Below, piece by piece: positions 29,701-41,310 of a stretch of DNA of 64,000 nucleotides. The translations under genes and the position numbers were made by a program. The stretch's first letter is position 1. Every line of letters begins with the position of its first letter. The notes under the pieces are model-generated. The model was given only the letters and a program-made list of their open reading frames with translations. It did not search any database and was not told the origin of the DNA. This stretch comes from Verrucomicrobiota bacterium (GTDB lineage: Bacteria > Verrucomicrobiota > Verrucomicrobiia > CAIQCK01), in the NCBI GenBank assembly GCA_026397915.1, contig JAPLTX010000060.1, forward strand, positions 110,210-174,209. Reading direction: 5' to 3'.

Positions 29701-29847
29701 CCCCTCACCCTAGCCCTCTCCCTCGCAGCGGCGGAGAGGGAGAAGTTTCACGCGCCGCAGCGCGACTTGCTGAAAGGTGAACACTTTCAAGGCAGCGTGG
29801 ACGGTTTCCCTCTCCCCATCCGATGGGGAGAGGGTCAGGGTGAGGGG
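29701..29847. repeat. CCCCTCACCC...GGGTGAGGGG palindromic element, copy 1 (intergenic)
   Basis: Terminal arms CCCCTCACCCTAGCCCTCTCCC / GGGAGAGGGTCAGGGTGAGGGG, each with an internal CCCTCTCCC..GGGAGAGGG hairpin. Confidence 0.85.
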
Positions 29848-29901: not shown

Positions 29902-32900
29902 ATGAAAATTTTTGCGTCCTTGCTGCTGTTCGCGTTTGCGAACTGTGCCGAAGCCGCGGACTGGCCGCAATGGCGCGGCAACGCCAACCGCACGGCGGAC
30001 ACGTCCGAGAAACTTCCCGCGCAGATGAGCCTGCGCTGGGTGCGCGAGTTTCCGGCGCGCGTGCCGGCGTGGGAGGATCCGCTGAACCAGGACTTGATGC
30101 CGTTCGACGCCGTCTTCGAGCCGGTGGTGATGGGCGACAGGATGTTCGTCGGGTTCAACGACGCCGACAAATTGGTCGCGCTGGACATTCACACGGGCCG
30201 GCAGCTCTGGGCGTTCTACGCCGACGGGCCGGTGCGGCTCGCGCCGGCTTGCTGGGAGGGCAGAGTCTATTTCGCCAGCGACGACGGCTGCCTCTATTGT
30301 GTGCGCGCTGACAACGGCGCGCTGGTGTGGAAATTCCGCGGCGGCCCCTCCAACCGCAAAGTGCTCGGCAACAGCCGCCTCATCTCCGCGTGGCCCGCGC
30401 GCGGCGGGCCGGTCATCCGCGACGGCGTGGTTTATTTCGCGGCGAGCATCTGGCCGTTCATGGGCACGTTCATCCACGCGCTCGATGCCGCGACCGGGCA
30501 GGTTGTCTGGGTCAACGACGGCACCGGTGCGCAGTTCGTCAAACAACCGCACAACGCGCCGGCGTTTGCCGGCGTCGCGCCGCAGGGCGCGCTCGTGGCG
30601 ACCGAGAAGTTCCTGCTCGTGCCGGGTGGCCGCTCCATTCCTGCGGCGTTCGACCGCGCGACTGGCGCGTTCCTCCACTTCCCCATCGCCGAGTCCGGCA
30701 AAGGCACGGGCGGCTCGACGGTGATGGCCAGCGAGAAGGAGTTCTTCGTCCACACCCGCGAGCGTGGCACGCGCGCCCACGATCTGGCGACGGGCAAGAA
30801 AACCATCTTCACCGTCAACGAGCCGGTGCTGGGCAAGACGCACGTCTATTGCGCCGCGAGCTGCTCGACGAACTTCGCCGCCCGCGCGGAAGCGGAGTTG
30901 AAACTGGAGACGGCGCGCCAGGCCCACCTCAAAGCGAAGAACGACCTCGCCGACGCGCAGGACGCGGCCGAGGCCAACGCCATCAAGCGCGCCGCCGCCG
31001 CGGTCAGTTCCGCCGAGAAGAAGGTCGAGCTTGCCGGAACGCTTGTGAGCCGCGCCCGACAGAACGCGCCGGATGGCGCCTCCGTCAAAGTCATCCAGGC
31101 GTGGAAGGCGGACAAATCGTTGCAGTGGGAAATCCCGGCCGACGGCTCCGGCGACCTCATCCGCGCCGCCGGCCGGCTCTACGCGGCCGGCTCAAACACC
31201 ATCGTCGCCATCGAAGTTCCGAAGCAGGGCGGCAAGCCCGCCATCGTCTGGTCGCAGCGCGTGCAGGGGACCGTGCGCCGGTTGCTCGCCGCCAACGGGA
31301 TGCTCTTCGCCGTGACGCTCGAAGGCCGCATCATGGCGTTCGGCGAAGGTGGAACGCGACCTCCGGGCGCGTTTCTGTCGAAAGCGAACGTGTCCAACAC
31401 GAACGCGTCCGGAGGCCGCGTTCCACCTGAACAAGCGCGCGAGATCATCGAGAAAACCGGCGCGCGCGAAGGCTGCGCGTTCGTGCTCGGCTTGGGCGAC
31501 GGCCAGTTGATCACGGCGCTGGCGACGGCCTCGAAGCTGCACCTCATCGGCGTGGATGCCGACGCCGCGAAAGTGGACCGCCTGCGACGGCAACTGGACG
31601 GCGCGGGCCTCTACGGCAAACGCGTGTCGCTGCTGGCGGCGCGGCCGGATGCGTTTGGCGCGCCGCCCTACATCGCCAGCCTCATCGTCGCTGATGACTC
31701 GCTGGCCCCGGCGGCGCTGCGCAAAGTTTATGAATCGCTGCGGCCCTACGGCGGTTCGCTCTGGATTGCCGGCGCGAAGAGCGTCGCCGTCGCCGGCCTG
31801 CCGAAGGCGAAAGTTGAAACCCTCGCCAACGCCGTGCGCATCGTGCGCGAAGGCGCGTTGCCGGGCGCGGCGGATTGGACCCACCAATACGGCGACATCG
31901 CCAACTCGGTGAAGTCCGACGATAGCGCGTTGAAGCTGCCAGTGGGCCTGCTGTGGTTTGGCGGCAACACGCACATGGACGTGCTGCCGCGCCACGGCCA
32001 CGGCCCGTCCGAGCAGGTCATTGGCGGCCGCTTGTTCATCGAAGGCATGGACTGCTTCAGCGCGCGCGACGTTTACACCGGCCGCGTGCTGTGGAAAACA
32101 ACCATTCCCGGCCTGAACACCGCCGGCATCTACCACGATAACACGCTGCTCGCGAATTCTCTGACCACGCTTTACAGCCAGCGCCATATCCCCGGCGCCA
32201 ACGCGCGCGGCGCGAACTTCGTCGCCACGGACGACAGGGTTTACATCGCCGTCGGCAACCACTGCGCCGTCCTCGACGCGGCGAGCGGCGCGATCCTCCG
32301 CGACATCCCGATGCCCGGCGGCGACTGGGGCTACATCGGCGTCTGCGGCGACGTGCTGCTCGGCGGTGCCGACTTCGCGCGCTTCAACAAACGCTTCCCG
32401 ACGCCCGGCCTCGACTTCCTCGCCGCCATCAGCGACTTCGCCGCCAGCCGCGGGCTGGTCGCGTTCGACCGCCACACCGGCGCGGTGCTCTGGCGGGCCG
32501 GCGCGCGGCACAGCTTCGTCCACAACGGCATCGTCGCCGGCGGCGGTCGCGTCTATTGCCTCGACCGCCTGCCGAAGAGCGCGGAACTCAAAGCCGCCGC
32601 GCGCGGCGAGAAAGTCGCGGCGAGCTACCGCATCGTCGCCCTCGACCTGCGCACGGGCAGGCCGCTGTGGGAAAACACCAACGGCGTCTTCGGCACGTGG
32701 CTGGCTTACTCGAAGGAGCGCGACCTCCTGCTCCAGGCCGGCGCGAGCGCCACCGACCGCTGGAAGGACGAGGCGAAGGAAGGCATGGCCGTCCTCCGCG
32801 CCAAAGATGGCACCGAGGTCTGGAAAAATCCGGGCCTCAAATACACCGGCCCGTGCATCCTCCACCACGACCTCATCATCACCACGCCGACCTCCTACAA

Positions 32901-33927
32901 ACAATCCGCCGGCGCCTTCAGCCTGCTCGACGGCAAGCCGCACCTCATCGCCAACCCGCTCACCGGCGAAGCCCAGCCCTGGCGCGTCTATCGCGCCTAC
33001 GGCTGCAACACGCCCGTCGCCTCCGAAAACGTGATGACCTTCCGCTCCGGCACCGCCGGCTTCTACGACCTGCAAACCCACGCCGGCACCGGCAACCTCG
33101 GCGGCTTCAAGAGCGGTTGCAGCGCCAACCTCATCGTCGCCAACGGCGTCCTCAACGCCCCCGACTACACCCGCACGTGCAGTTGCCCCTACCAGAACCA
33201 GACCTCCCTCGCCCTCGTCTCGATGCCGGAGGTGGAGATGTGGACCTGCAACCTCTCCGGTTTCGACGCGCCCGAGGGCAGGCGCATCGCGCGCATCGGC
33301 ATCAACCTCGGCGCGGCCGGCGACCGCATCGCGGACGACGGCACGCTCTGGCTCGAATACCCCTCCGCCGGCGGTATCTCCCCGCAACTGCCCGTCACCA
33401 TCACCGGCGACACCCGTAACATCTTCCGCCGGCACGCCAGCGCCGTCACCGGCAGCGGCCCCGCGTGGGTCGTCGCCTCCGGCCTGCGCGACATCGAGTC
33501 CATCGTCATCACCCCGCAGACACAGAAAGCCCCGCCGCCCTCCGCCCAGAAGGACGACGAGGAAGACGACAAAGCCGCCGCCAAGGGCAAGACCGCTGCC
33601 GCCCCCGCGCGGCCCGCCGAACCGGCCGCTGCGCCCGCCGCCGCCATTCCCCCGCTGCCGCCCGCCCGCTACACCGTGCGGCTCTACTTCATGGAACCGG
33701 ACGACATCGCGCCGGGCCAGCGCGTCTTCGACGTGCTCCTCCAAGGCCAGCCGGTCCTGAAGAACTTCGACATCGTCAGAGCCGCCGGCGCCGTCAACCG
33801 CGGCGTCGTGAAGGAATTCAAGAACGTCCAACTCGCCCCCCGGCTCGAAGTCCGCCTGCAAAAGTCAGCCGCCTCCACCCTCGGCCCCGCCCTCAGCGGC
33901 GTCGAGTTGGTGCTTGAGAAAAACTGA
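29902..33927 (+). CDS. Giant exported protein: PQQ-like beta-propeller + SAM-methyltransferase-like domain + second propeller with Cys motif + malectin-like domain
   Basis: Signal peptide then ADWPQWRG; repeated propeller blades (G..LW); VLGLGDG..GVDAD..LRPYGG; YGC..SGC..CSC; YTVRLYFMEP..RVFDVLLQG..FDI. Confidence 0.88.
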   Translation: MKIFASLLLFAFANCAEAADWPQWRGNANRTADTSEKLPAQMSLRWVREFPARVPAWEDPLNQDLMPFDAVFEPVVMGDRMFVGFNDADKLVALDIHTGRQLWAFYADGPVRLAPACWEGRVYFASDDGCLYCVRADNGALVWKFRGGPSNRKVLGNSRLISAWPARGGPVIRDGVVYFAASIWPFMGTFIHALDAATGQVVWVNDGTGAQFVKQPHNAPAFAGVAPQGALVATEKFLLVPGGRSIPAAFDRATGAFLHFPIAESGKGTGGSTVMASEKEFFVHTRERGTRAHDLATGKKTIFTVNEPVLGKTHVYCAASCSTNFAARAEAELKLETARQAHLKAKNDLADAQDAAEANAIKRAAAAVSSAEKKVELAGTLVSRARQNAPDGASVKVIQAWKADKSLQWEIPADGSGDLIRAAGRLYAAGSNTIVAIEVPKQGGKPAIVWSQRVQGTVRRLLAANGMLFAVTLEGRIMAFGEGGTRPPGAFLSKANVSNTNASGGRVPPEQAREIIEKTGAREGCAFVLGLGDGQLITALATASKLHLIGVDADAAKVDRLRRQLDGAGLYGKRVSLLAARPDAFGAPPYIASLIVADDSLAPAALRKVYESLRPYGGSLWIAGAKSVAVAGLPKAKVETLANAVRIVREGALPGAADWTHQYGDIANSVKSDDSALKLPVGLLWFGGNTHMDVLPRHGHGPSEQVIGGRLFIEGMDCFSARDVYTGRVLWKTTIPGLNTAGIYHDNTLLANSLTTLYSQRHIPGANARGANFVATDDRVYIAVGNHCAVLDAASGAILRDIPMPGGDWGYIGVCGDVLLGGADFARFNKRFPTPGLDFLAAISDFAASRGLVAFDRHTGAVLWRAGARHSFVHNGIVAGGGRVYCLDRLPKSAELKAAARGEKVAASYRIVALDLRTGRPLWENTNGVFGTWLAYSKERDLLLQAGASATDRWKDEAKEGMAVLRAKDGTEVWKNPGLKYTGPCILHHDLIITTPTSYKQSAGAFSLLDGKPHLIANPLTGEAQPWRVYRAYGCNTPVASENVMTFRSGTAGFYDLQTHAGTGNLGGFKSGCSANLIVANGVLNAPDYTRTCSCPYQNQTSLALVSMPEVEMWTCNLSGFDAPEGRRIARIGINLGAAGDRIADDGTLWLEYPSAGGISPQLPVTITGDTRNIFRRHASAVTGSGPAWVVASGLRDIESIVITPQTQKAPPPSAQKDDEEDDKAAAKGKTAAAPARPAEPAAAPAAAIPPLPPARYTVRLYFMEPDDIAPGQRVFDVLLQGQPVLKNFDIVRAAGAVNRGVVKEFKNVQLAPRLEVRLQKSAASTLGPALSGVELVLEKN
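31347..31428. repeat. REP doublet (REPIN-like) in frame inside the CDS
   Basis: 27-bp arms AGGTGGAACGCGACCTCCGGGCGCGTT / AACGCGTCCGGAGGCCGCGTTCCACCT (25/27), each with a GTGG foot and an AACGCG..CGCGTT hairpin. Confidence 0.85.
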
Positions 33928-33944
33928 ACGCGCCGCGCGCGCCT

Positions 33945-34577
33945 TCACGTCGCCCGGCAGCGCACCGGCGATCCCCACGGCCCCGTGCCCGCACGGGCCA
34001 GCGTCGCCACGCGAAACCAATACTCCTTGCCCGGCTCCAGTCCCGTCACCGTGCATTTGCGGCGCGTGAACGCTCCCACATACTTCCATCCCGCCTTCCC
34101 GTCCGGGTCCGTGCTCATCTCCACCAGATACGACGGCCTGCGCCGCCGCACGAGCGTCCACCTCAACAGAACACTGCCGGCGAGCAGACCCGGCAACGCC
34201 TTCAAACCATCCGGCGCGGGCAACAGCCCGATCCGCTTCTTCTCCGCCACCAGCTCCAGCCCCGCACTGACCAGCGCCGCGGCCACGCCCCCAGTCTGCG
34301 ACTCCACTCCCGCCCTCAACAGCCACGCCGCATGCCGCAACTCTCGCATCGCGTCGTTGCGCTTCAGCACCTGCGCCTTCAACGTCTTGCGCGCCGTCTC
34401 CACGGCGTCAATCAACGTGCGCGCCTCCTCCACCGCCCGTTGCAGCCGGGGCAGATGCTCCAGCTTCCCTGCCAGCGCCGCATCGCTGCTTGCGCCGCGC
34501 GCCAGCCGCTCCGCCACCCTCAACTGCTCACCCACCGGCTTGTCCTTGAAGGCCAACTTCGTTCTTGCGAGTTTCAT
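33945..34577 (-). CDS. Cytoplasmic fibronectin type III domain protein (helical N-terminus + FN3)
   Basis: PAPDGLKA..GSVLLRW..SYLVE..W..TVTGLEPGKEYWFRV..G.GPWG. Start set at MKLARTK. Confidence 0.8.
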   Translation of the reverse strand: MKLARTKLAFKDKPVGEQLRVAERLARGASSDAALAGKLEHLPRLQRAVEEARTLIDAVETARKTLKAQVLKRNDAMRELRHAAWLLRAGVESQTGGVAAALVSAGLELVAEKKRIGLLPAPDGLKALPGLLAGSVLLRWTLVRRRRPSYLVEMSTDPDGKAGWKYVGAFTRRKCTVTGLEPGKEYWFRVATLARAGTGPWGSPVRCRAT

Positions 34578-34717
34578 TCTCGTGCTCCGTTCATTTGCAA
34601 GCCGCCGGGCACCATCCGCCGACGGCAAACATCCTTCTGCAAAGACCATTTTCCATCCGGTGGATTGGTGAAAGCAAGGACGGAAAGTTCGTTTCCTTAC
34701 CAGCAGTAGGCCATTTC

Positions 34718-34975
34718 CAGACTGGAAAAGGCCTCCGGCAGACTGAAGAAGGCTCATGCGCGACTGGAATGAGCGGCCGTCAGACTGGAATCCGGCCCGA
34801 TCCGATTGATTTCGCCTCCTGCCGGGCTGGAGACAGCGGTTTCCAGCCTGCGGAATGCCTCCGCTCTCCTGCCGAATGCCTTCATATAGTAAGGAAACTA
34901 ACTTTCCTTACTAGCAACATGCTATTTCCAAACTAGAAACCAGCTATTTTCTTCAGGAAACCAGCAAAAACAGCC
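34718..34975. repeat. Degenerate 21-bp-period repeat tract containing an 11-bp perfect inverted repeat
   Basis: GACTG(G/A)A heads at 34718/34739/34760/34781; CTGC(G/C)GAATGCCT at 34848/34869; TAGTAAGGAAA-N5-TTTCCTTACTA at 34887-34913. Confidence 0.6.
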
Positions 34976-35057
34976 GGAAAGTGGGCAAAGCCAGGATGTT
35001 TTCCGCGCCTCACAACATGGAGATCAACCAAGCCGACTTGGAAGCCAGCCAACTCCA

Positions 35058-35106
35058 TCCGACGTCCGACTCCTTACGCCCTACGTCTCACGCATCGCGC
35101 TTCCCG
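35058..35106. repeat. Degenerate tandem heptamers
   Basis: TCCGACG TCCGACT CCTTACG CCCTACG TCTCACG CATCGCG CTTCCCG. Confidence 0.45.
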
Positions 35107-35173
35107 CCGCGCTGTCTCCGACTGCCGAAGCCGTCCCGCCCGTCCTCCGCCCCATTCCGCGTGCCGCACAACC

Positions 35174-35224
35174 TGACTCATAGTCCATAGACCTTTCGAC
35201 CGTTTTAGCATGGACTATCAGTCA
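35174..35224. promoter_or_regulatory. 15-bp inverted repeat containing two GACT-N3-AGTC (C-box-like) palindromes
   Basis: TGACTCATAGTCCAT...ATGGACTATCAGTCA; GACTCATAGTC at 35175 and GACTATCAGTC at 35213. Confidence 0.55.
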
Positions 35225-35306
35225 TGCCGAAACGTGACCCACCCTCGCCGCTCTTGGTCGGAATGTCCGTCATCACCGCGAAGCGCGCGGCTTGCGCTGT
35301 GAAGGT

Positions 35307-36107
35307 TCAGTCGCTGAAAACTTCCGAGCGATGATACGCAAGGAACTGCGGGTCTGGTTTCGCAAGCTTGCTGGGCAGTTGAATCGGTTTACCCTCGAAC
35401 GATACGAAATTCTTCTCCAGTGCTGGCTGCGGCAAGTAAGCTTTGAGCCTTTTGCTGAGGACAACCTTCAGCTTCTCGTCCAGCGTGATAAGCCCGGCGT
35501 CGAATGCGGCGTCGTGGATGGACGAGAGGCAAAGACCGTTTCGTGGGTTCAATCTCTGATCCGGAAAGTCACGCCACGGTTTGATATGGCTTGCAACGAG
35601 CAGGCGCGGCACGTTGATTCCGCTGATGCAGCAACGCACACCGTAAGCATTGAGAATCGCCTGACGGAAGAATTGTTGTCCGCGTCGCACCCGCACAGTC
35701 GCGTTGGATTCCGTCGGTCCTGTCGGCGGCGTTGGCTCAAGTCGGATTCTGTCGCGGTGAAGGAAATCCAGTTCCTTTGCTTCGTCTTTCGTAAAAAGGT
35801 CATGCAGCATTTCCTCGCTCTCCGGGCCAAGCGTCGCGAGTTCGGAGTGGAACTCTTCCCACAACGCGCGATCTAGTTTCGATACGTTCGGAAATCCACC
35901 TACGCCGCGCTCATGATGCACAGGATCAAAAGAAGCGAAATTGCAGAGCTTCATAACCAGAGCGTCTGGCGTGCGGCCGATCCTCTTCGCCACGTCAACG
36001 ATGATGGGATTCTTTTTGTCGAATTGTCCGAACGGCAGCTTGCAGTAGAGGTTCAGCGCGATTAGAAGTTGCTCGCGCGTCCAGTTGACTCTCGGGGCGT
36101 TAGCCAT
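35307..36107 (-). CDS. HNH endonuclease (predicted restriction endonuclease, N-terminal helical domain + HNH)
   Basis: WTREQL.IALNLYCKLPFG..RTPDALVMKL.NF; RRGQQFFRQAILNAYG.RCCISG..LVASHIKPW..NGLCL..HDAAFDAG. Confidence 0.92.
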   Translation of the reverse strand: MANAPRVNWTREQLLIALNLYCKLPFGQFDKKNPIIVDVAKRIGRTPDALVMKLCNFASFDPVHHERGVGGFPNVSKLDRALWEEFHSELATLGPESEEMLHDLFTKDEAKELDFLHRDRIRLEPTPPTGPTESNATVRVRRGQQFFRQAILNAYGVRCCISGINVPRLLVASHIKPWRDFPDQRLNPRNGLCLSSIHDAAFDAGLITLDEKLKVVLSKRLKAYLPQPALEKNFVSFEGKPIQLPSKLAKPDPQFLAYHRSEVFSD

Positions 36108-36196
36108 GAACGAAGCGTGCCACATTCAGACGCGTCTGCGAAGCTCGAAAGAGCTTGCCTTGCTCGCCATTCCTGGCCAGGTAGTTCTGTCGAGTT

Positions 36197-36430
36197 ATGG
36201 ATAAGACTTACACAATCAAACTCGACAGTGCCGATCTCGGCCAACTGCTTGACGGCTTGATAGCGCGCGCGGAGGCGTGGGAGAAAACAGCACACTACCA
36301 CCGAACGGGAGAAGATCCGAAAGACATTCTTGTGGAAGAGTGTGTTGACGCCGAGGAAGCCGAAACCATCGCCGACCATTACCGATCCATCATCGCCAAG
36401 ATTCAACAACAGCGGAAGGAGCAATCATGA
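36197..36430 (+). CDS. Hypothetical 77-aa acidic helical protein
   Basis: Clean ORF with protein-like composition; ATGA-coupled to the next ORF. Confidence 0.75.
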   Translation: MDKTYTIKLDSADLGQLLDGLIARAEAWEKTAHYHRTGEDPKDILVEECVDAEEAETIADHYRSIIAKIQQQRKEQS

Positions 36431-36729
36431 ACGGGGAAACCTCCCTCAACCTTCGGAACGGGTTCTGCATTTTCGAGAACGTGCTTTCGCAAGGCCCTAC
36501 ACCGATAGTCAGCGACGGCGAAAACAAGTATGTGGTTTTTGAGACCGAGCTGGAGGCGCAAAAAGAAATCGCTGATTACGCCATGACCCGCTTGCGGCAG
36601 TTTATTGATGGCGAGCGAGACTTCGACGACGCCATTGTCGTGGATGAATACGTGGTGCCCGTAACCGTGCATCCCGACGGCACGATCACAGATGAAGACG
36701 GCAGGTGTTTTGGACCATACGCAGAATGA
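36427..36729 (+). CDS. Hypothetical 100-aa acidic protein
   Basis: GGAG RBS, ATGA overlaps at both ends, protein-like composition. Confidence 0.75.
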   Translation: MNGETSLNLRNGFCIFENVLSQGPTPIVSDGENKYVVFETELEAQKEIADYAMTRLRQFIDGERDFDDAIVVDEYVVPVTVHPDGTITDEDGRCFGPYAE

Positions 36730-36974
36730 TGAAGCTGGCGGTGTTTGTGGACGGCTGTTTCTGGCATAGCTGTCCGAAGCACGGGACGAAGCCGGCGAAC
36801 AACGCGGCGTTCTGGCGGAAGAAACTGTCTGCGAACAAGGCGCGGGACCGGCGGGTGACGCGGACGCTGCGGCGGCTGGGCTGGCGGGTGGTGCGGATTT
36901 GGGAGCACGAGCTGGCGCGCAAGAATGAGACGCGCTGCGTGGAGAAGATACGGAGGAAACTTAGCCACGGATGA
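36726..36974 (+). pseudogene. vsr: Very short patch repair endonuclease, C-terminal half only
   Basis: KLAVFVDGCFWH.CP.H...FW..K...N..RD..V...L..LGWRV.RIWEHEL. The N-terminal MSRI..TKPE..PD segment is absent. Confidence 0.85.
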
Positions 36975-37028
36975 ACACAGATTCACACGGATGCGGCGAG
37001 GCTCACGCAAAGACGCGGAGACGCCAGG
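36963..37028. repeat. Half copy of a CCACGGATGAACACAGAT-type repeat
   Basis: AGCCACGGATGAACACAGATTCACACGGAT has 9-nt periodicity like the arms at 98-193. Confidence 0.5.
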
Positions 37029-37051
37029 CATCGAAAGCGGACGGTCGAGGA

Positions 37052-37261
37052 TCAGAAGCCGAAGTCAACCGGGGTCAGGCCGGACTGGCGGATGATGGAG
37101 CGGGTGGTGCCGGCGGGGATTTCCTTCTTCGGATGCGGCACGATGGCGATACGGCCGGTGGGGTTCTTGTATTTACAGTGGCTGCCTTTTTGCGAAACGA
37201 AGCCAAATCCGTGTTGCTGCAGCACACGGATGATTTCGGTCGAACTGAGCCGCCTAGGCAT
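37052..37261 (-). CDS. hicA: HicA-family toxin
   Basis: MPRRLSSTEIIRVLQQHGF..VSQKGSH.KY....VPHPKKEIPAGT.RSIIRQSGL. Confidence 0.92.
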   Translation of the reverse strand: MPRRLSSTEIIRVLQQHGFGFVSQKGSHCKYKNPTGRIAIVPHPKKEIPAGTTRSIIRQSGLTPVDFGF

Positions 37262-37463
37262 TGACCAGTTCCCGGCCGACGGTGGCCTCGCTGACCGGCG
37301 CAAAGGCGTCGGGAGTCTCGCCCTCGCAGTAAAGCTCGACCGCTTCCTTGAGGTTGCTCACAGCTTCCTCTTTGGTGTGGCCGAAGCTGGAGACATCCAC
37401 GTTGAGACATTGCGCCACGAAGAACTCGTCTTCCCGATACACACAGTAAGCAATCTCTTTCAC
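37254..37463 (-). CDS. hicB: HicB-family antitoxin (short, no C-terminal DNA-binding domain)
   Basis: VYREDEFFVAQC..VDVSSFGHTKEEAVSNLKEAVELY; overlaps the hicA start. Confidence 0.9.
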   Translation of the reverse strand: MKEIAYCVYREDEFFVAQCLNVDVSSFGHTKEEAVSNLKEAVELYCEGETPDAFAPVSEATVGRELVNA

Positions 37464-37556
37464 GAGGCGACCCTAACATGGCGTGTTCGCAAAGACAACC
37501 ACGCCGCTGAGTCGTTGTTGCAGGCGGGGCGGGGCGACGGCTAGAGTGCGGCTGCC

Positions 37557-40500
37557 ATGAGTTTTCATCTTCGAGCCTTTCTCGCCATCGCACTTTCCCT
37601 GCTCACACCGGCTTTGTTGGCGGCGGCCGACTGGCCGATGTGGCGCTGCGACGCGGGGCGGACGGCGGCCTCCAGCGAGACGCTGCCGCAGGAGCTGCAC
37701 TTGCAGTGGGTGCGGGAATATCCGGCGCTGAAGCCGGCGTTCTGGCAGGTGCGGCAGGAGCGGGTGCAGTTCGACCTCGGCTACGAGCCGGTGGTGATGG
37801 GGCGGACGATGTTCGTCGCGTCGTCGCGCAACGACAGTGTCACGGCGCTGGACGCGGAGACGGGCGCGGAGAAGTGGCGGTTCTACGCCGACGGCCCGGT
37901 GCGGTTCGCGCCGGTGGCCTGGGAGCGGAAGCTTTATTTTGTCTGCGACGACGGCTGTCTCTATTGCCTCGACGCGGCGGGCGGGAAGCTGCTCTGGAAG
38001 GTCCACGCCGTGCCCTCGAACCGCAAGGTGCTCGGCAACGGGCGGCTCATCTCGGTCTGGCCCGCGCGCGGCGGGCCGGTGCTCGACGGCGGGCGCGTGT
38101 TTTTCGCGGCGGGCGTCTGGCCGTTCGAGGGCATCTTTGTGCACGCGGTGGACGCGCGGACCGGCCGGTCGCTGTGGGTCAACGACAGCATGGGGTCGTT
38201 GTATCTGGTGCATCCACACAAGGCGATGTCGTTTGGCGGGCCGTCGCCGCAGGGCTATCTGCTGATGAACCGCGGGCGGCTGGTGGTGCCGAGCAGCCGT
38301 GCGTTTCCCGCGTTTCTCGATCCGGCGACGGGCAAGCTGCTGTCGTTCGACTTCGGCCACGGCCGCACGGACAGCGAGACGGGCGGATGGTTCCTGTCGA
38401 GTGACGCCGAAGGCCGGCTCTGCGTGGACCCGGCGATTGATTCGGAGATGCATGACGGCGGAATGCAGACCGTCGGGCAGATCGGGCTGCGCAGGAATCC
38501 CGGCGACAAGGTGAAAGAGACTGTCACGATCGGCAAGGAAACCTATCGCGTGATGGATGGCGTGGCGGGAGTGATCCGCGCCGGCTCGCGGGAGTTTCGG
38601 TTCCGCGACGGCTTCCCCGGTGTCGAGGGAACCATTCACACGATGCTCGCGGCGGACGGCCGGTTGTTCGTCGTGACGCGCGAGGGCCGCATTCATTGCT
38701 TCGGCGGCAAACAGGTCCAGCCCGTGCGTCACGCGGCGAAGGCGCGGCCGGCTGAGCCACGCCGGAACGATGCAGGCGCCGCCGCCCCTCACCCCGGCCC
38801 TCTCCCCGCTGACGCGGAGAGAGGGAGAATGCCTTCGTTGGGAGAACCGTCGAACCATTCGACGGGTTCGGCAACGACGGCGACAAGCTCCCCTCTCCCC
38901 CATCGGGGGAGAGGGCAGGGTGAGGGGGTGTCGGGCGGCAGGCAGGGCCAGGGTGAGGGGAGCCGACCGGAGACTGCCAAAGTATTGTTCAAGCTGAGCG
39001 GGCAGAGCGAAGGCTACGCGTTGGTGTTGGGCCTCGGCAACGGCAATCTCGCCGAAGCGCTGGCGACGCAACCGAAGCTGCGCGTCATCGCCGTGGATCG
39101 CGACGCGAAGAAGGTCGCGGTGTTCCGCCAGCGACTGGACGCGGCGGGACTTTATGGCGAGAAGATCACCGCGCACATCGGCGAGCCAGCGGCGTTCGGG
39201 TTGCCGCCTTACATGGCGAACCTGATCGTTGTCGAGGAACCCGCTGCGGCGGGAGAGAACTTCCTCGAAGCAGCCTTCGCGGCGCTGCGGCCTTACGGCG
39301 GCACGTTGTGCGTGAAGGTCGCGGAGCTGCCACGCGAGAAGGTCGTGAAGCTGGCGGGCGCGCAGTTGCGGCAGGAAGGCGGCTGGACGCTCGTGGTGCG
39401 GGCGGGGCCGTTGCCCGGCGCGGCGAACTACACCGGCCGCCCGAACTACGACGATCTCGTGCGCGCGCCGCTGGGCCTGCTGTGGTTCGGCGACACGTTC
39501 CATCATCACAAGCTCTTCTATAACGGCGTGACGGCGGAGTCGGGCCGCGGCCTACCCGCCTACGTCAAGGTCGAGGACGGCGTGGTGAGCTACATGGTCA
39601 CGGAGCCTTATGGCATGAAGCCGCCGAAGCTGAGCTATACGGACATGCTGAGGAAGTTCAACGAGCAGACGCACGCGGCGGCATTCAGCGATGTCTATAC
39701 GGGGCGGCTGCTGGAGCGCGGCCCGAAAGCTTCGCCCGCGGCCGCTTCCGCCGAGTCGCTGCCGCTCGCGCGCCGCAACCCGATCACCGGCCGCGAGGAG
39801 GCGCGAGAGTATATGAAGACCTACGGCTGCGACCTCGTCGGCGCGGACTACGGGAACTTCATCACGCTGCGCTCCGGCACGGGGGCGTTTTACGACAAGC
39901 GCAGCGAGAGTGGCACCGTCAACATCAGCGGCCTGCGCTCCGGCTGCCGCAACAACATGGTGCCGGCCTGCGGCGTCCTGAGCGTGCCGTCGTGGACCGG
40001 CAACTGCACCTGCAACTATCCGGTCTTCACCTCGCTCGCGCTGGTCTCGATGCCGGAGAGCTTCGAGCAATGGAGCGCGTGGGGCGGCGTGGCCGAGGAC
40101 GGGCCAATCCGGCGCGTCGGCATCAACTTCGGCGCGCCCGGCGACCGCATGACGCGCGACGGCACGCTCTGGCTCGATTGGCCCAGCGTGGGCGGCCCGT
40201 CGCCGGACGTGCGCGTGCAGGTCGCGCCCGCCGACGCGCAGCCGTTCTACCGGCACGCGCTCTGGATGAAGGGCGGCGAAGGCTGGCCGTGGGTGTTCGC
40301 GTCTGGCATCAAGGGCGCGCGCACCGTGCGCATCGAAACGATTGCCCGCGCGACCAACGCGCCCTCCGCGAACTTCAGCGCGCGCTGGACCGGCCAGATC
40401 GAGCCGCAGTTCAGCGAGGAATACACGTTCCACGCGCGCAGCGACGGACCGATGCACGTCTGGATAGACAACCGGCCATTGCTCGACAGCACGCTGAGGC

Positions 40501-41120
40501 CATTGCGCGACGGCCAGCGCGAGGCGTCGGCGAAGATCACGCTCGAGGCCGGCACGAAGCATGACCTGTTCGTGGATTACAAACACGCACCCGCCACCAA
40601 CTCCGCACCGTCTGCGTTTGCTGAGTTGAGTTGGAGCAGTCCGTCGGTGCCGAAGACCGTCATTCCGCCGGAGCGACTCCTGGCGCCCGACGGTCGTCGC
40701 GGCGGTCTGGCGGGCGTCTATTACAAAGCCGAGCGATCGTCCGGCGCTTACAGCAACGAGCGGACGAGCACCCCCGCGCTGTTCCAGCGCGACACGCAGG
40801 TCCGTTTCGAATGGGGCAGCGAACTGCCGGTGATTCTCAAGCCCCGCCCGCCGGTTCAACCGGCTGAGCGTGCCTACACGGTGCGGCTGATGTTCGCCGA
40901 GCCGGAGGAAATTCGCGCAGGCCAGCGCGTCTTCGACGTGAAGCTCCAGGGCCGCGAAGTTCTCCCGTCGCTCGACATCGTCAAGCAAGCCGGCGGCAGC
41001 AATCGCGGCATCGTCCGCGAGTTCCGCGGCGTGAAGGCCACCGACGCGTTGGAGATCGAGCTTGTCCCGCGCAGCGCCAAACCGCCGCTCATCTGCGGCG
41101 TCGAATTGATCGCCGAGTAG
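37557..41120 (+). CDS. Giant exported protein: PQQ-like propeller + SAM-methyltransferase-like domain + Cys motif + malectin-like domain with nested PA14
   Basis: Paralogue of 29902-33927 (ADWPMWR, GNGRLISVWPARGGP, VLGLGNG..AVDRD..LRPYGG, YGC..SGC..CTC, YTVRLMFAEP..RVFDV). PA14-like FSARWTGQIEP..YTF..SDG..VWID. Confidence 0.88.
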   Translation: MSFHLRAFLAIALSLLTPALLAAADWPMWRCDAGRTAASSETLPQELHLQWVREYPALKPAFWQVRQERVQFDLGYEPVVMGRTMFVASSRNDSVTALDAETGAEKWRFYADGPVRFAPVAWERKLYFVCDDGCLYCLDAAGGKLLWKVHAVPSNRKVLGNGRLISVWPARGGPVLDGGRVFFAAGVWPFEGIFVHAVDARTGRSLWVNDSMGSLYLVHPHKAMSFGGPSPQGYLLMNRGRLVVPSSRAFPAFLDPATGKLLSFDFGHGRTDSETGGWFLSSDAEGRLCVDPAIDSEMHDGGMQTVGQIGLRRNPGDKVKETVTIGKETYRVMDGVAGVIRAGSREFRFRDGFPGVEGTIHTMLAADGRLFVVTREGRIHCFGGKQVQPVRHAAKARPAEPRRNDAGAAAPHPGPLPADAERGRMPSLGEPSNHSTGSATTATSSPLPHRGRGQGEGVSGGRQGQGEGSRPETAKVLFKLSGQSEGYALVLGLGNGNLAEALATQPKLRVIAVDRDAKKVAVFRQRLDAAGLYGEKITAHIGEPAAFGLPPYMANLIVVEEPAAAGENFLEAAFAALRPYGGTLCVKVAELPREKVVKLAGAQLRQEGGWTLVVRAGPLPGAANYTGRPNYDDLVRAPLGLLWFGDTFHHHKLFYNGVTAESGRGLPAYVKVEDGVVSYMVTEPYGMKPPKLSYTDMLRKFNEQTHAAAFSDVYTGRLLERGPKASPAAASAESLPLARRNPITGREEAREYMKTYGCDLVGADYGNFITLRSGTGAFYDKRSESGTVNISGLRSGCRNNMVPACGVLSVPSWTGNCTCNYPVFTSLALVSMPESFEQWSAWGGVAEDGPIRRVGINFGAPGDRMTRDGTLWLDWPSVGGPSPDVRVQVAPADAQPFYRHALWMKGGEGWPWVFASGIKGARTVRIETIARATNAPSANFSARWTGQIEPQFSEEYTFHARSDGPMHVWIDNRPLLDSTLRPLRDGQREASAKITLEAGTKHDLFVDYKHAPATNSAPSAFAELSWSSPSVPKTVIPPERLLAPDGRRGGLAGVYYKAERSSGAYSNERTSTPALFQRDTQVRFEWGSELPVILKPRPPVQPAERAYTVRLMFAEPEEIRAGQRVFDVKLQGREVLPSLDIVKQAGGSNRGIVREFRGVKATDALEIELVPRSAKPPLICGVELIAE
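38785..38960. repeat. CCCCTCACCC...GGGTGAGGGG element, copy 2, in frame inside the CDS
   Basis: CCCCTCACCCCGGCCCTCTCCC (38785) ... GGGAGAGGGCAGGGTGAGGGG (to 38927), plus an extra right-arm fragment to 38960. The ORF stays open. Confidence 0.85.
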
Positions 41121-41169: not shown

Positions 41170-41310
41170 CCCCTCACCCTGGCCCTCTCCCCTCGCAAGC
41201 GAGGGGAGAGGGACGCCTGTCGCCGTCATGCACAGCAGATGGTTCGCCCGCTCGTGCGCAAGGAGTTTTTCCTCTCCCCGCGATAGTGGGGAGAGGGTCG
41301 GGGTGAGGGG
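41170..41310. repeat. CCCCTCACCC...GGGTGAGGGG element, copy 3 (intergenic)
   Basis: CCCCTCACCCTGGCCCTCTCCC ... GGGAGAGGGTCGGGGTGAGGGG, followed by CCGCGGC as in copy 1. Confidence 0.85.

Follow-up and report, generated by a model that had tools for sequence, protein, structure and literature searches.

The question raised by this locus was whether a mobile repeat can be absorbed into a protein and serve as the linker between two of its domains. The stretch analysed, called here the window, comprises 64,000 nucleotides of a contig from a Verrucomicrobiota bacterium (assembly GCA_026397915.1, contig JAPLTX010000060.1, positions 110,210 to 174,209), and the gene concerned, paralogue 1, carries in frame a palindrome built from two inverted units of a repetitive extragenic palindromic (REP) family. 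An earlier note, made from the letters of the window, had proposed that a mobile repeat had become a linker in this protein. The results obtained made it very probable that an 81-base REPIN-like doublet, belonging to a REP family of the Planctomycetes-Verrucomicrobia-Chlamydiae (PVC) bacteria, landed in frame in this gene and now serves as an inter-domain linker.

Paralogue 1 has 2745 homologues, chiefly in metagenome-assembled genomes (MAGs) of Verrucomicrobia. Its layout consists of a signal peptide, a PQQ-like beta-propeller, a methyltransferase-like Rossmann domain, a second propeller-like region and a C-terminal malectin domain; in Pfam the N-terminal PQQ-like propeller, Methyltransf_25 (residues 529-617) and the malectin domain were matched, the Methyltransf_25 match being weak (E = 6e-4). 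The 81 bases of the element are in frame with the open reading frame (ORF) of this gene, and the encoded peptide is placed between the end of the propeller and the residues EQAREII (31429-31449), with which the methyltransferase-like domain begins. A repeat search delimited two arms of 32 nt (31347-31378 and 31397-31428), 88% complementary and separated by an 18-nt gap, with a 27-nt core (31348-31374 against 31401-31427) matched at 25 of 27 positions. Within the 64-kb window, a 26-nt arm pattern allowing up to 3 mismatches hit these two sites and no others (0.00 expected from shuffles). The palindrome and the position of its peptide between the two domains, both claimed in the earlier note, were thus borne out by the repeat search, the ORF, Pfam and the AlphaFold model described below. 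Since the in-frame element was present in at least seven independent assemblies, an assembly artefact was considered unlikely.

The predicted mRNA fold of the element was a single long hairpin (-58.1 kcal/mol, z = -6.6; 0/200 shuffles folded as well); as single-stranded DNA, one strand reached -38.6 and the other -37.8 kcal/mol (z about -8.5). Each unit also formed a hairpin alone as DNA, with -8.8 kcal/mol for unit 1 and -10.4 kcal/mol for unit 2 (z = -3.5). The 15-nt stretch in the spacer, equal to five codons (VSNTN), was missing from the 94%-identical orthologue L001/L058. It was similar to the opening bases of unit 2 (AACGTGTCC against AACGCGTCC), and in the DNA fold it formed a small hairpin itself; judging from the letters, it probably arose when the beginning of unit 2 was locally duplicated in part. 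The coordinates of the gene, the element and its parts are collected in the table.

Table. Features of paralogue 1 and of the in-frame REP doublet (positions of the window)
Feature	Position	Strand	Description and evidence
Host gene, paralogue 1 (1341 aa)	29902..33927	+	ORF list, start codon placed, Pfam, homologues
Propeller end, EGRIMAFG	31321..31344	+	Last predicted beta-strand directly before the element (AlphaFold strand E98-101 of the modelled segment)
Whole REP doublet (REPIN-like)	31347..31428	+	27 in-frame codons at 31348-31428, encoding GGTRPPGAFLSKANVSNTNASGGRVPP
REP unit 1	31348..31373	+	GGTGGA tag, stem ACGCG, loop region ACCTCCGGG (A..G variant), stem CGCGT; encodes GGTRPPGA
Spacer between REP units	31374..31401	+	28 nt; includes the 15-nt stretch AACGTGTCCAACACG (about 31387-31401)
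REP unit 2, inverted	31402..31427	-	GGTGGA, ACGCG, GCCTCCGGA (G..A variant), CGCGT; + strand encodes (N)ASGGRVPP
Methyltransferase-like domain start	31429..31503	+	Helix EQAREIIEKTG, then strand and glycine motif AFVLGLGDG; AlphaFold helix H130-140, strand E144-150

The family was scanned for with the pattern GGAACGCGNCCTCCGGNCGCGTT, one genome being taken per species. At least 120 loci were matched, in about 70 genomes among the matches listed, and the taxa among them were Opitutaceae, Lacunisphaera, Chthoniobacteraceae, Udaeobacter, Limisphaerales, Kiritimatiellia, Lentisphaerae, Victivallales and one genome labelled Nitrospirota, with up to eight sampled loci per MAG. All counts of units, doublets and genic copies given here were taken from these loci, chosen by exact pattern match. 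A GGT directly upstream was conserved though not demanded by the pattern, and conservation stopped beyond it. The unit was hence defined as 26 nt, made up of a GGTGGA tag, a stem of 5-6 bp, the loop region (A/G)CCTCCGG(G/A) and the complementary stem; the hairpin it forms has a stem of 8 pairs, which a conserved A.G or G.A mismatch interrupts, and a TCC triloop. The stems were 5/5 in 173 units, and the ends of the loop region covaried (A..G in 119, G..A in 43 and mixed in 9). Strict doublets were head-out in 57 of 58 cases, with a spacer mode of 22-25 nt, and for many units that looked single a diverged partner was present, one such loop region being CTCGGAGAT.

The doublet of the window is likewise head-out, with a slightly longer spacer of 28 nt, and its unit 1 fits the family pattern exactly. 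Its two mismatches are not random decay, since they reflect the two common variants of the family, A..G in arm 1 and G..A in arm 2. All six reading frames of the unit are free of stop codons, as read from its sequence. The loop region (31359-31367 and 31408-31416 in the window) was also seen to read CCTCC on one strand, which is anti-Shine-Dalgarno-like, and GGAGG, which is Shine-Dalgarno-like, on the other.

The pairing within the unit was assessed on a separate sample that avoids circularity, in which partner units were gathered by tag and loop only, with the stem unconstrained, and those matching the search pattern were dropped. Five Watson-Crick pairs were found in 44 of 59 partner units, and four plus one G-T pair in 7 more, with over ten different stem sequences. 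Among the 40 distinct partner sequences, 7 of the 8 proposed pairs had changed on both sides, and the pair at unit positions 12-20 was the conserved A.G or G.A mismatch. The covariation score was 0.52 compared with 0.17 in shuffles (0/500 shuffles reached 0.52), and 84% of the cells were paired, against 20-43% with the partner slid. This covariation indicates that the unit hairpin is under selection. In Rfam 15, the window region gave only generic microRNA-like hairpin matches at permissive E-values, far below the gathering score, and 12 repeat-bearing loci searched at gathering scores gave tRNAs only.

Furthermore, the family was found around genes for RayT, the REP-associated tyrosine transposase. 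In L076, a Pontiellaceae MAG, tblastn led to a 149-aa ORF (1040-1489) matching Y1_Tnp (PF01797, 27.4 bits, cut-off 23), whose 714 homologues include many named 'REP element-mobilizing transposase RayT'. This gene is flanked by doublets of the present unit, one abutting the ATG and the other overlapping the stop codon. In L129, L130 and L131 (RayT at 1501-2040, in Verrucomicrobia and Opitutaceae contigs) units also abut the start codon and lie at or just downstream of the stop, the end of the coding sequence being reached or overlapped by a unit in 3 of the 4 loci. A RayT gene flanked by units is the defining architecture of REP/REPIN-RAYT systems. In two loci the gene stands between phosphoglucomutase and the 2-oxoacid dehydrogenase E2 acyltransferase. 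In the other two it lies upstream of tsf and follows mevalonate-diphosphate decarboxylase (L076) or mevalonate-diphosphate decarboxylase and Fpg (L131). Such conserved neighbourhoods fit vertical inheritance of the transposase gene.

Two other classes of element were considered for the repeat and rejected. It is not an integron attC site, as the core sites RYYYAAC and GTTRRRY are not matched by GTGGAAC and GTTCCAC, and the copies are dispersed inverted pairs, not arrays. It is probably not a miniature inverted-repeat transposable element (MITE) either, given that no target-site duplication was seen and the associated enzyme is RayT, not a DDE transposase; no consistent direct repeat was noticed beside the elements when about 70 oriented copies were read by eye.

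Residues 380-760 of paralogue 1 were modelled with AlphaFold2 from an alignment of 57 orthologues. The model showed confident propeller strands up to its residue 101 and a confident Rossmann-like fold opening with the helix at 130-140. The element occupies model residues 104-130, of which residues 105-126 had a predicted local distance difference test score (pLDDT) below 50 and no secondary structure. The peptide encoded by the repeat is accordingly predicted to be a disordered inter-domain linker.

The distribution of the element was surveyed in the best 120 of the 2745 homologues. The peptide was carried by the window protein and by the clusters P0003, P0004 and P0005, at 84% identity or more, and by no others, and more than 100 more distant orthologues were free of it and had an unrelated linker of about the same length. 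By lineage, the carriers were the window, L001/L058, L002/L128 and L003/L127, that is, four of the five closest lineages, the fifth, L004 (P0002), having an unrelated 21-residue linker between identical flanks. The earlier note had held that a peptide present in all orthologues and a motif repeated nowhere else would speak against an absorbed repeat; the orthologue alignment yielded element-free alleles in L004 and in the distant orthologues, and the motif recurs across the PVC genomes scanned. The possibility of a native coding palindrome, raised by chance or local duplication and unrelated to any mobile repeat, agrees with the single copy in the 64-kb window, but we count it as refuted by these same orthologues and by the 26-nt unit with its tag, mostly non-genic and flanking RayT, in the other genomes of the scan.

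Between the anchors TLEGR and GLGDG, most of the non-carriers printed had 58 residues (outliers 49-71) and the carriers 58-66. The linker of non-carriers is variable (for example, QGSGAAPTIKEQARPLAPPPAAL), and the ancestral one was of about 21-23 residues. The near-equal spacing implies that the element occupies the place of the old linker and is not an addition of about 25 residues. The proposal that a mobile repeat was absorbed as a protein linker was thus supported by the dispersed family, the RayT flanking, the orthologues and the predicted disorder; its linker role stood, and the idea of a simple addition gave way to replacement of the ancestral linker.

The alleles of the carriers differed in their state. 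Both arms were perfect (27/27) in L002 and L128; L001 and L058 had the arms of the window with a spacer 15 nt shorter; the arms of L003 matched at 24/28; and in L127 the element is clearly decaying (GGMQPPGA ... PADAVPS), which implies that the peptide itself is not needed. The junctions read FGE/GGT...VPP/EQ, FSEAKPE/GGT and FGLPV/GGT...VPP/SVQEQ in the carriers, and in P0132/L128 they were FGE/GGT and VPP/EQ, identical to those of the window.

Copies inside and outside genes were counted with our own heuristic of ORF span and GC content at third codon positions (GC3). A total of 119 of the 128 elements were outside genes and 9 (7%) inside, which gives the intragenic against intergenic count that the earlier note had named as a check on its inference. 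By Pfam, the nine intragenic copies are all in real genes, between or within domains: at the N/G junction of FtsY (2 genomes), between the OB fold and DUF3418 of HrpA, in a Ser/Thr kinase, in an HsdM methylase, in a Type ISP restriction enzyme (2 genomes), in a DUF6298 protein and in an orthologue of paralogue 1. Their commonest reading is that of the window, GG[TA]RPPGA ... GGRVPP. In FtsY, the doublet was seen at the same N/G junction in two different Verrucomicrobiota MAGs (L037 2102-2163 and L080 6640-6701), read as GGARPPGA...GGRVPP. This junction may be a second recurrent landing site; the FtsY of Opitutus terrae is listed with another REP family.

According to the explanation proposed, the units would be substrates of RayT, a HUH tyrosine transposase that is itself flanked by them, and the ancestor of a small clade of Verrucomicrobiia would have received a doublet in the linker, unconstrained in sequence, that joins propeller and methyltransferase-like domain. 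The insertion would have survived because the unit has no stop in six frames, the length of the doublet is a multiple of three and its peptide, rich in Gly, Pro, Thr, Arg and Ala, is disordered. The residues of the ancestral linker would then have been lost, leaving the repeat as the linker itself with the spacing of the domains nearly unchanged. We infer the mediation by RayT, this order of insertion and loss, and the neutrality of the insert. For mobilisation by RayT the sole sign, an indirect one, is that orthologous sites differ in their occupancy.

Several results weigh against this explanation. In a neighbour-joining tree from which the linker was left out, the element-free L004 nests in the carrier clade (92% bootstrap for the clade excluding P0004), which means that one gain is insufficient and that replacement, recombination or repeated gains are needed. 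No carrier allele has remnants of the ancestral linker beside the element, a pattern that simple insertion does not predict. The window and about 100 kb of sequence from close relatives contained no other unit, and no RayT was detected in the window or in the close relatives L001-L004 by tblastn with the L076 RayT; RayT would be linked to the present genome through the family, from related genomes. The gene/non-gene count rests on a home-made ORF/GC3 heuristic and an exact-pattern sample. Finally, the arms of the window and L002 differ at 2 of 52 positions and the spacers at about 13 of 25, with a gene-wide four-fold divergence of 0.24.

The nesting of L004 bears on the possibility that the three carrier lineages gained the doublet independently or by allele exchange, the linker attracting REPs and no single ancestral insertion having occurred. 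The junctions that differ between lineages, the spacers unrelated in length and largely in sequence, the arms near consensus in two lineages and the other repeat families that struck the same linker independently (see below) all agree with it. Nevertheless, the junctions of P0132/L128 are exactly those of the window, and since all carriers are without the ancestral linker, parallel deletions would be required. Moreover, the linker of L004 is not demonstrably ancestral, its alignment being no better than shuffles (z = 1.4 against an outgroup linker and about 0 against the element). Independent gains are possible but doubtful; the history would consist either of one gain plus a replacement or of several gains.

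The contrast between arms and spacer in the window and L002 hints less at plain neutral inheritance than at constraint, gene conversion or separate insertions. It would also suit a doublet kept for a function, whether as a hairpin that slows ribosomes for the folding of the propeller, as a determinant of mRNA stability or as a live RayT substrate refreshed by gene conversion. The perfect arms of L002 and L128 point the same way, and so does arm 2, in which the difference of the window and L001 from L002 is exactly the covarying A..G to G..A switch of the family; the high stability of the hairpin (-58 kcal/mol) and the three palindromic repeat families at one domain boundary in orthologues and paralogues can be added. 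On the other hand, more than 100 orthologues do without any palindrome at this linker, and REP insertions occur in many unrelated proteins. The arms of L003 and L127 differ at 10 of 52 positions, that is, they decay faster than four-fold sites (9.6%). When restricted to the arms, the four-fold-site test was suggestive but weak (P about 0.1 for the window against L002, and 0.004 for the best pair, with no correction for multiple tests; extreme GC3 keeps four-fold divergence low, and L001, whose allele L058 shares, was left out of this codon analysis). Arms kept in some lineages and freely decaying in another are compatible with constraint, gene conversion or separate consensus-like insertions. 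Altogether, retention for a function appeared quite unlikely, and the element is better read as a tolerated insert that forms the linker.

The same boundary carries other repeats. Paralogue 2 (37557-41120, + strand), downstream of paralogue 1 and 45% identical to it, has the same layout plus a PA14 domain. From EGRIHCF to VLGLG it has 119 residues, compared with 50 in the L004 orthologue, which presents a clean empty site; the difference is a 69-aa insert at about 38760-38969, in frame in the equivalent linker and also present in L001. It consists of a CTCACCCCGGCCCTCTCCCC unit (38788-38807) with an imperfect inverted partner (38906-38934) and encodes ...APHPGPLPADAERG...SPLPHRGRGQGEG... in its peptide. 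The GC-rich CTCACCCnnnCCCTCTCCCC repeat of this insert has two more copies outside genes in the window, at 29704-29844 and 41173-41307, both as inverted pairs (5 matches in the window against 0.01 expected). The first was seen directly upstream of the start of paralogue 1, lengthening the mechanical ORF artificially to 1425 aa, and the second between paralogue 2 and a GH106-like gene. Additionally, a third kind of palindromic doublet, GCAGACATTCTTGTCTGC with its inverted partner, lies in the same linker of the orthologue P0009 (73% identity; L125 4000-4060) and encodes AQTFLSAPARADAERNVCVT (AQTFLSAP...ERNVCVT); one further copy of this motif was seen in L072. On these alignments, the linker between propeller and methyltransferase-like domain is a permissive spot, apparently colonised by two further repeat families, in paralogue 2 and in P0009.

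The gap between the two paralogues varies among relatives as well. Its cargo comprises MazE/PIN, NOV_C and Vsr in L001 (6700-9500), HTH, a C5 DNA methylase, EcoRII-C and Vsr in L004 (14100-17800) and MazE/PIN in L127 (7250-8100), and in L003 the two genes abut. Judged by this content, the gap (33930-37550 in the window) resembles a small variable island in which defence and toxin-antitoxin genes are housed.

Intragenic REPs have been described in the same phylum. REPs were divided into GTAG- and CGTC-tagged super-families by Di Nocera et al. (2013, BMC Genomics 14:522; PMC3733652), who listed about 70 ORFs with in-frame REPs in Opitutus terrae, a Verrucomicrobium, some of the insertions being dimers coding for 20-30 residues. 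The host ORFs include FtsY, a Ser/Thr kinase, an N6 DNA methylase and HrpA, and the authors proposed that the inserts occupy flexible linkers or loops. The same work documents the GTGG tag variant for O. terrae and places a REP of another family at residues 105-111 of its FtsY. The statement in the earlier note that in-frame palindromes are known mainly from Rickettsia was therefore too strong, and it is well supported that the present family is another one of this documented kind, whose rarity had been overstated for this phylum.

The present family resembles the intragenic REPs GTAG-17/18/19 of O. terrae in phylum and in the kinds of host gene, and its GGTGGA tag is the GTGG form of the GTAG tag. 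The peptides differ (GTGVPPV, VGPALAAG and VAGVADPGPGSASPA in O. terrae; GGTRPPGA and GGRVPP here), as does the sequence of the unit, and GGTRPP, GGRVPP and GTGGAACG were not found in the tables of PMC3733652. It further differs in spanning several PVC classes and in replacing the ancestral linker instead of adding to it.

The REPIN-RAYT systems of Pseudomonas and Enterobacteria (Bertels and Rainey, 2011, PMC3116915; Nunvar et al.) are alike in their inverted tagged doublets, their dispersed and mostly non-genic copies and a RayT flanked by them. Each of those families is as a rule confined to one species or genus, whereas the present 26-nt unit is nearly identical from Opitutaceae to Kiritimatiellia and Lentisphaerae, and intragenic copies are rarely reported in the gammaproteobacterial systems. 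The Rickettsia palindromic elements (RPE; Ogata et al., 2000, cited in PMC3733652) are likewise palindromes in frame in functional genes, with a peptide added at tolerant surface or linker sites. The likeness is one of behaviour: RPE-1 is described as longer palindromic insertions (PMC3733652), Rickettsia belongs to the Alphaproteobacteria, and it is by description that the two are set side by side. The MITEs found in bacterial genes (reviewed in PMC10969869) share with the present element a small size, a lack of autonomy, inverted ends and the capacity to be read as protein, but they have terminal inverted repeats derived from insertion sequences and target-site duplications, and the present family is associated with RayT, not with a DDE transposase.

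This clean and well-controlled case of a selfish repeat turned into protein sequence brings together the family, the transposase, element-bearing and element-free alleles, one allele in decay and predicted disorder. The phenomenon known from O. terrae is extended to a REP family common to several PVC classes, and further interest lies in that spread, in a linker replaced with its spacing kept, in a boundary repeatedly colonised and in arms unevenly conserved. We consider it rather unlikely that the REP arms are actively maintained, by hairpin selection or gene conversion, and that the boundary is a recurrent landing pad at which three palindromic families independently replaced or extended the linker; if this were so, REPINs would be a regular source of inter-domain linkers in PVC bacteria and not rare accidents. 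For the proteins of these bacteria, GGTRPPGA and GGRVPP are marks of REP read-through, not conserved motifs, and such inserts inflate the apparent diversity of linkers and can mislead alignment and gene calling in high-GC MAGs.

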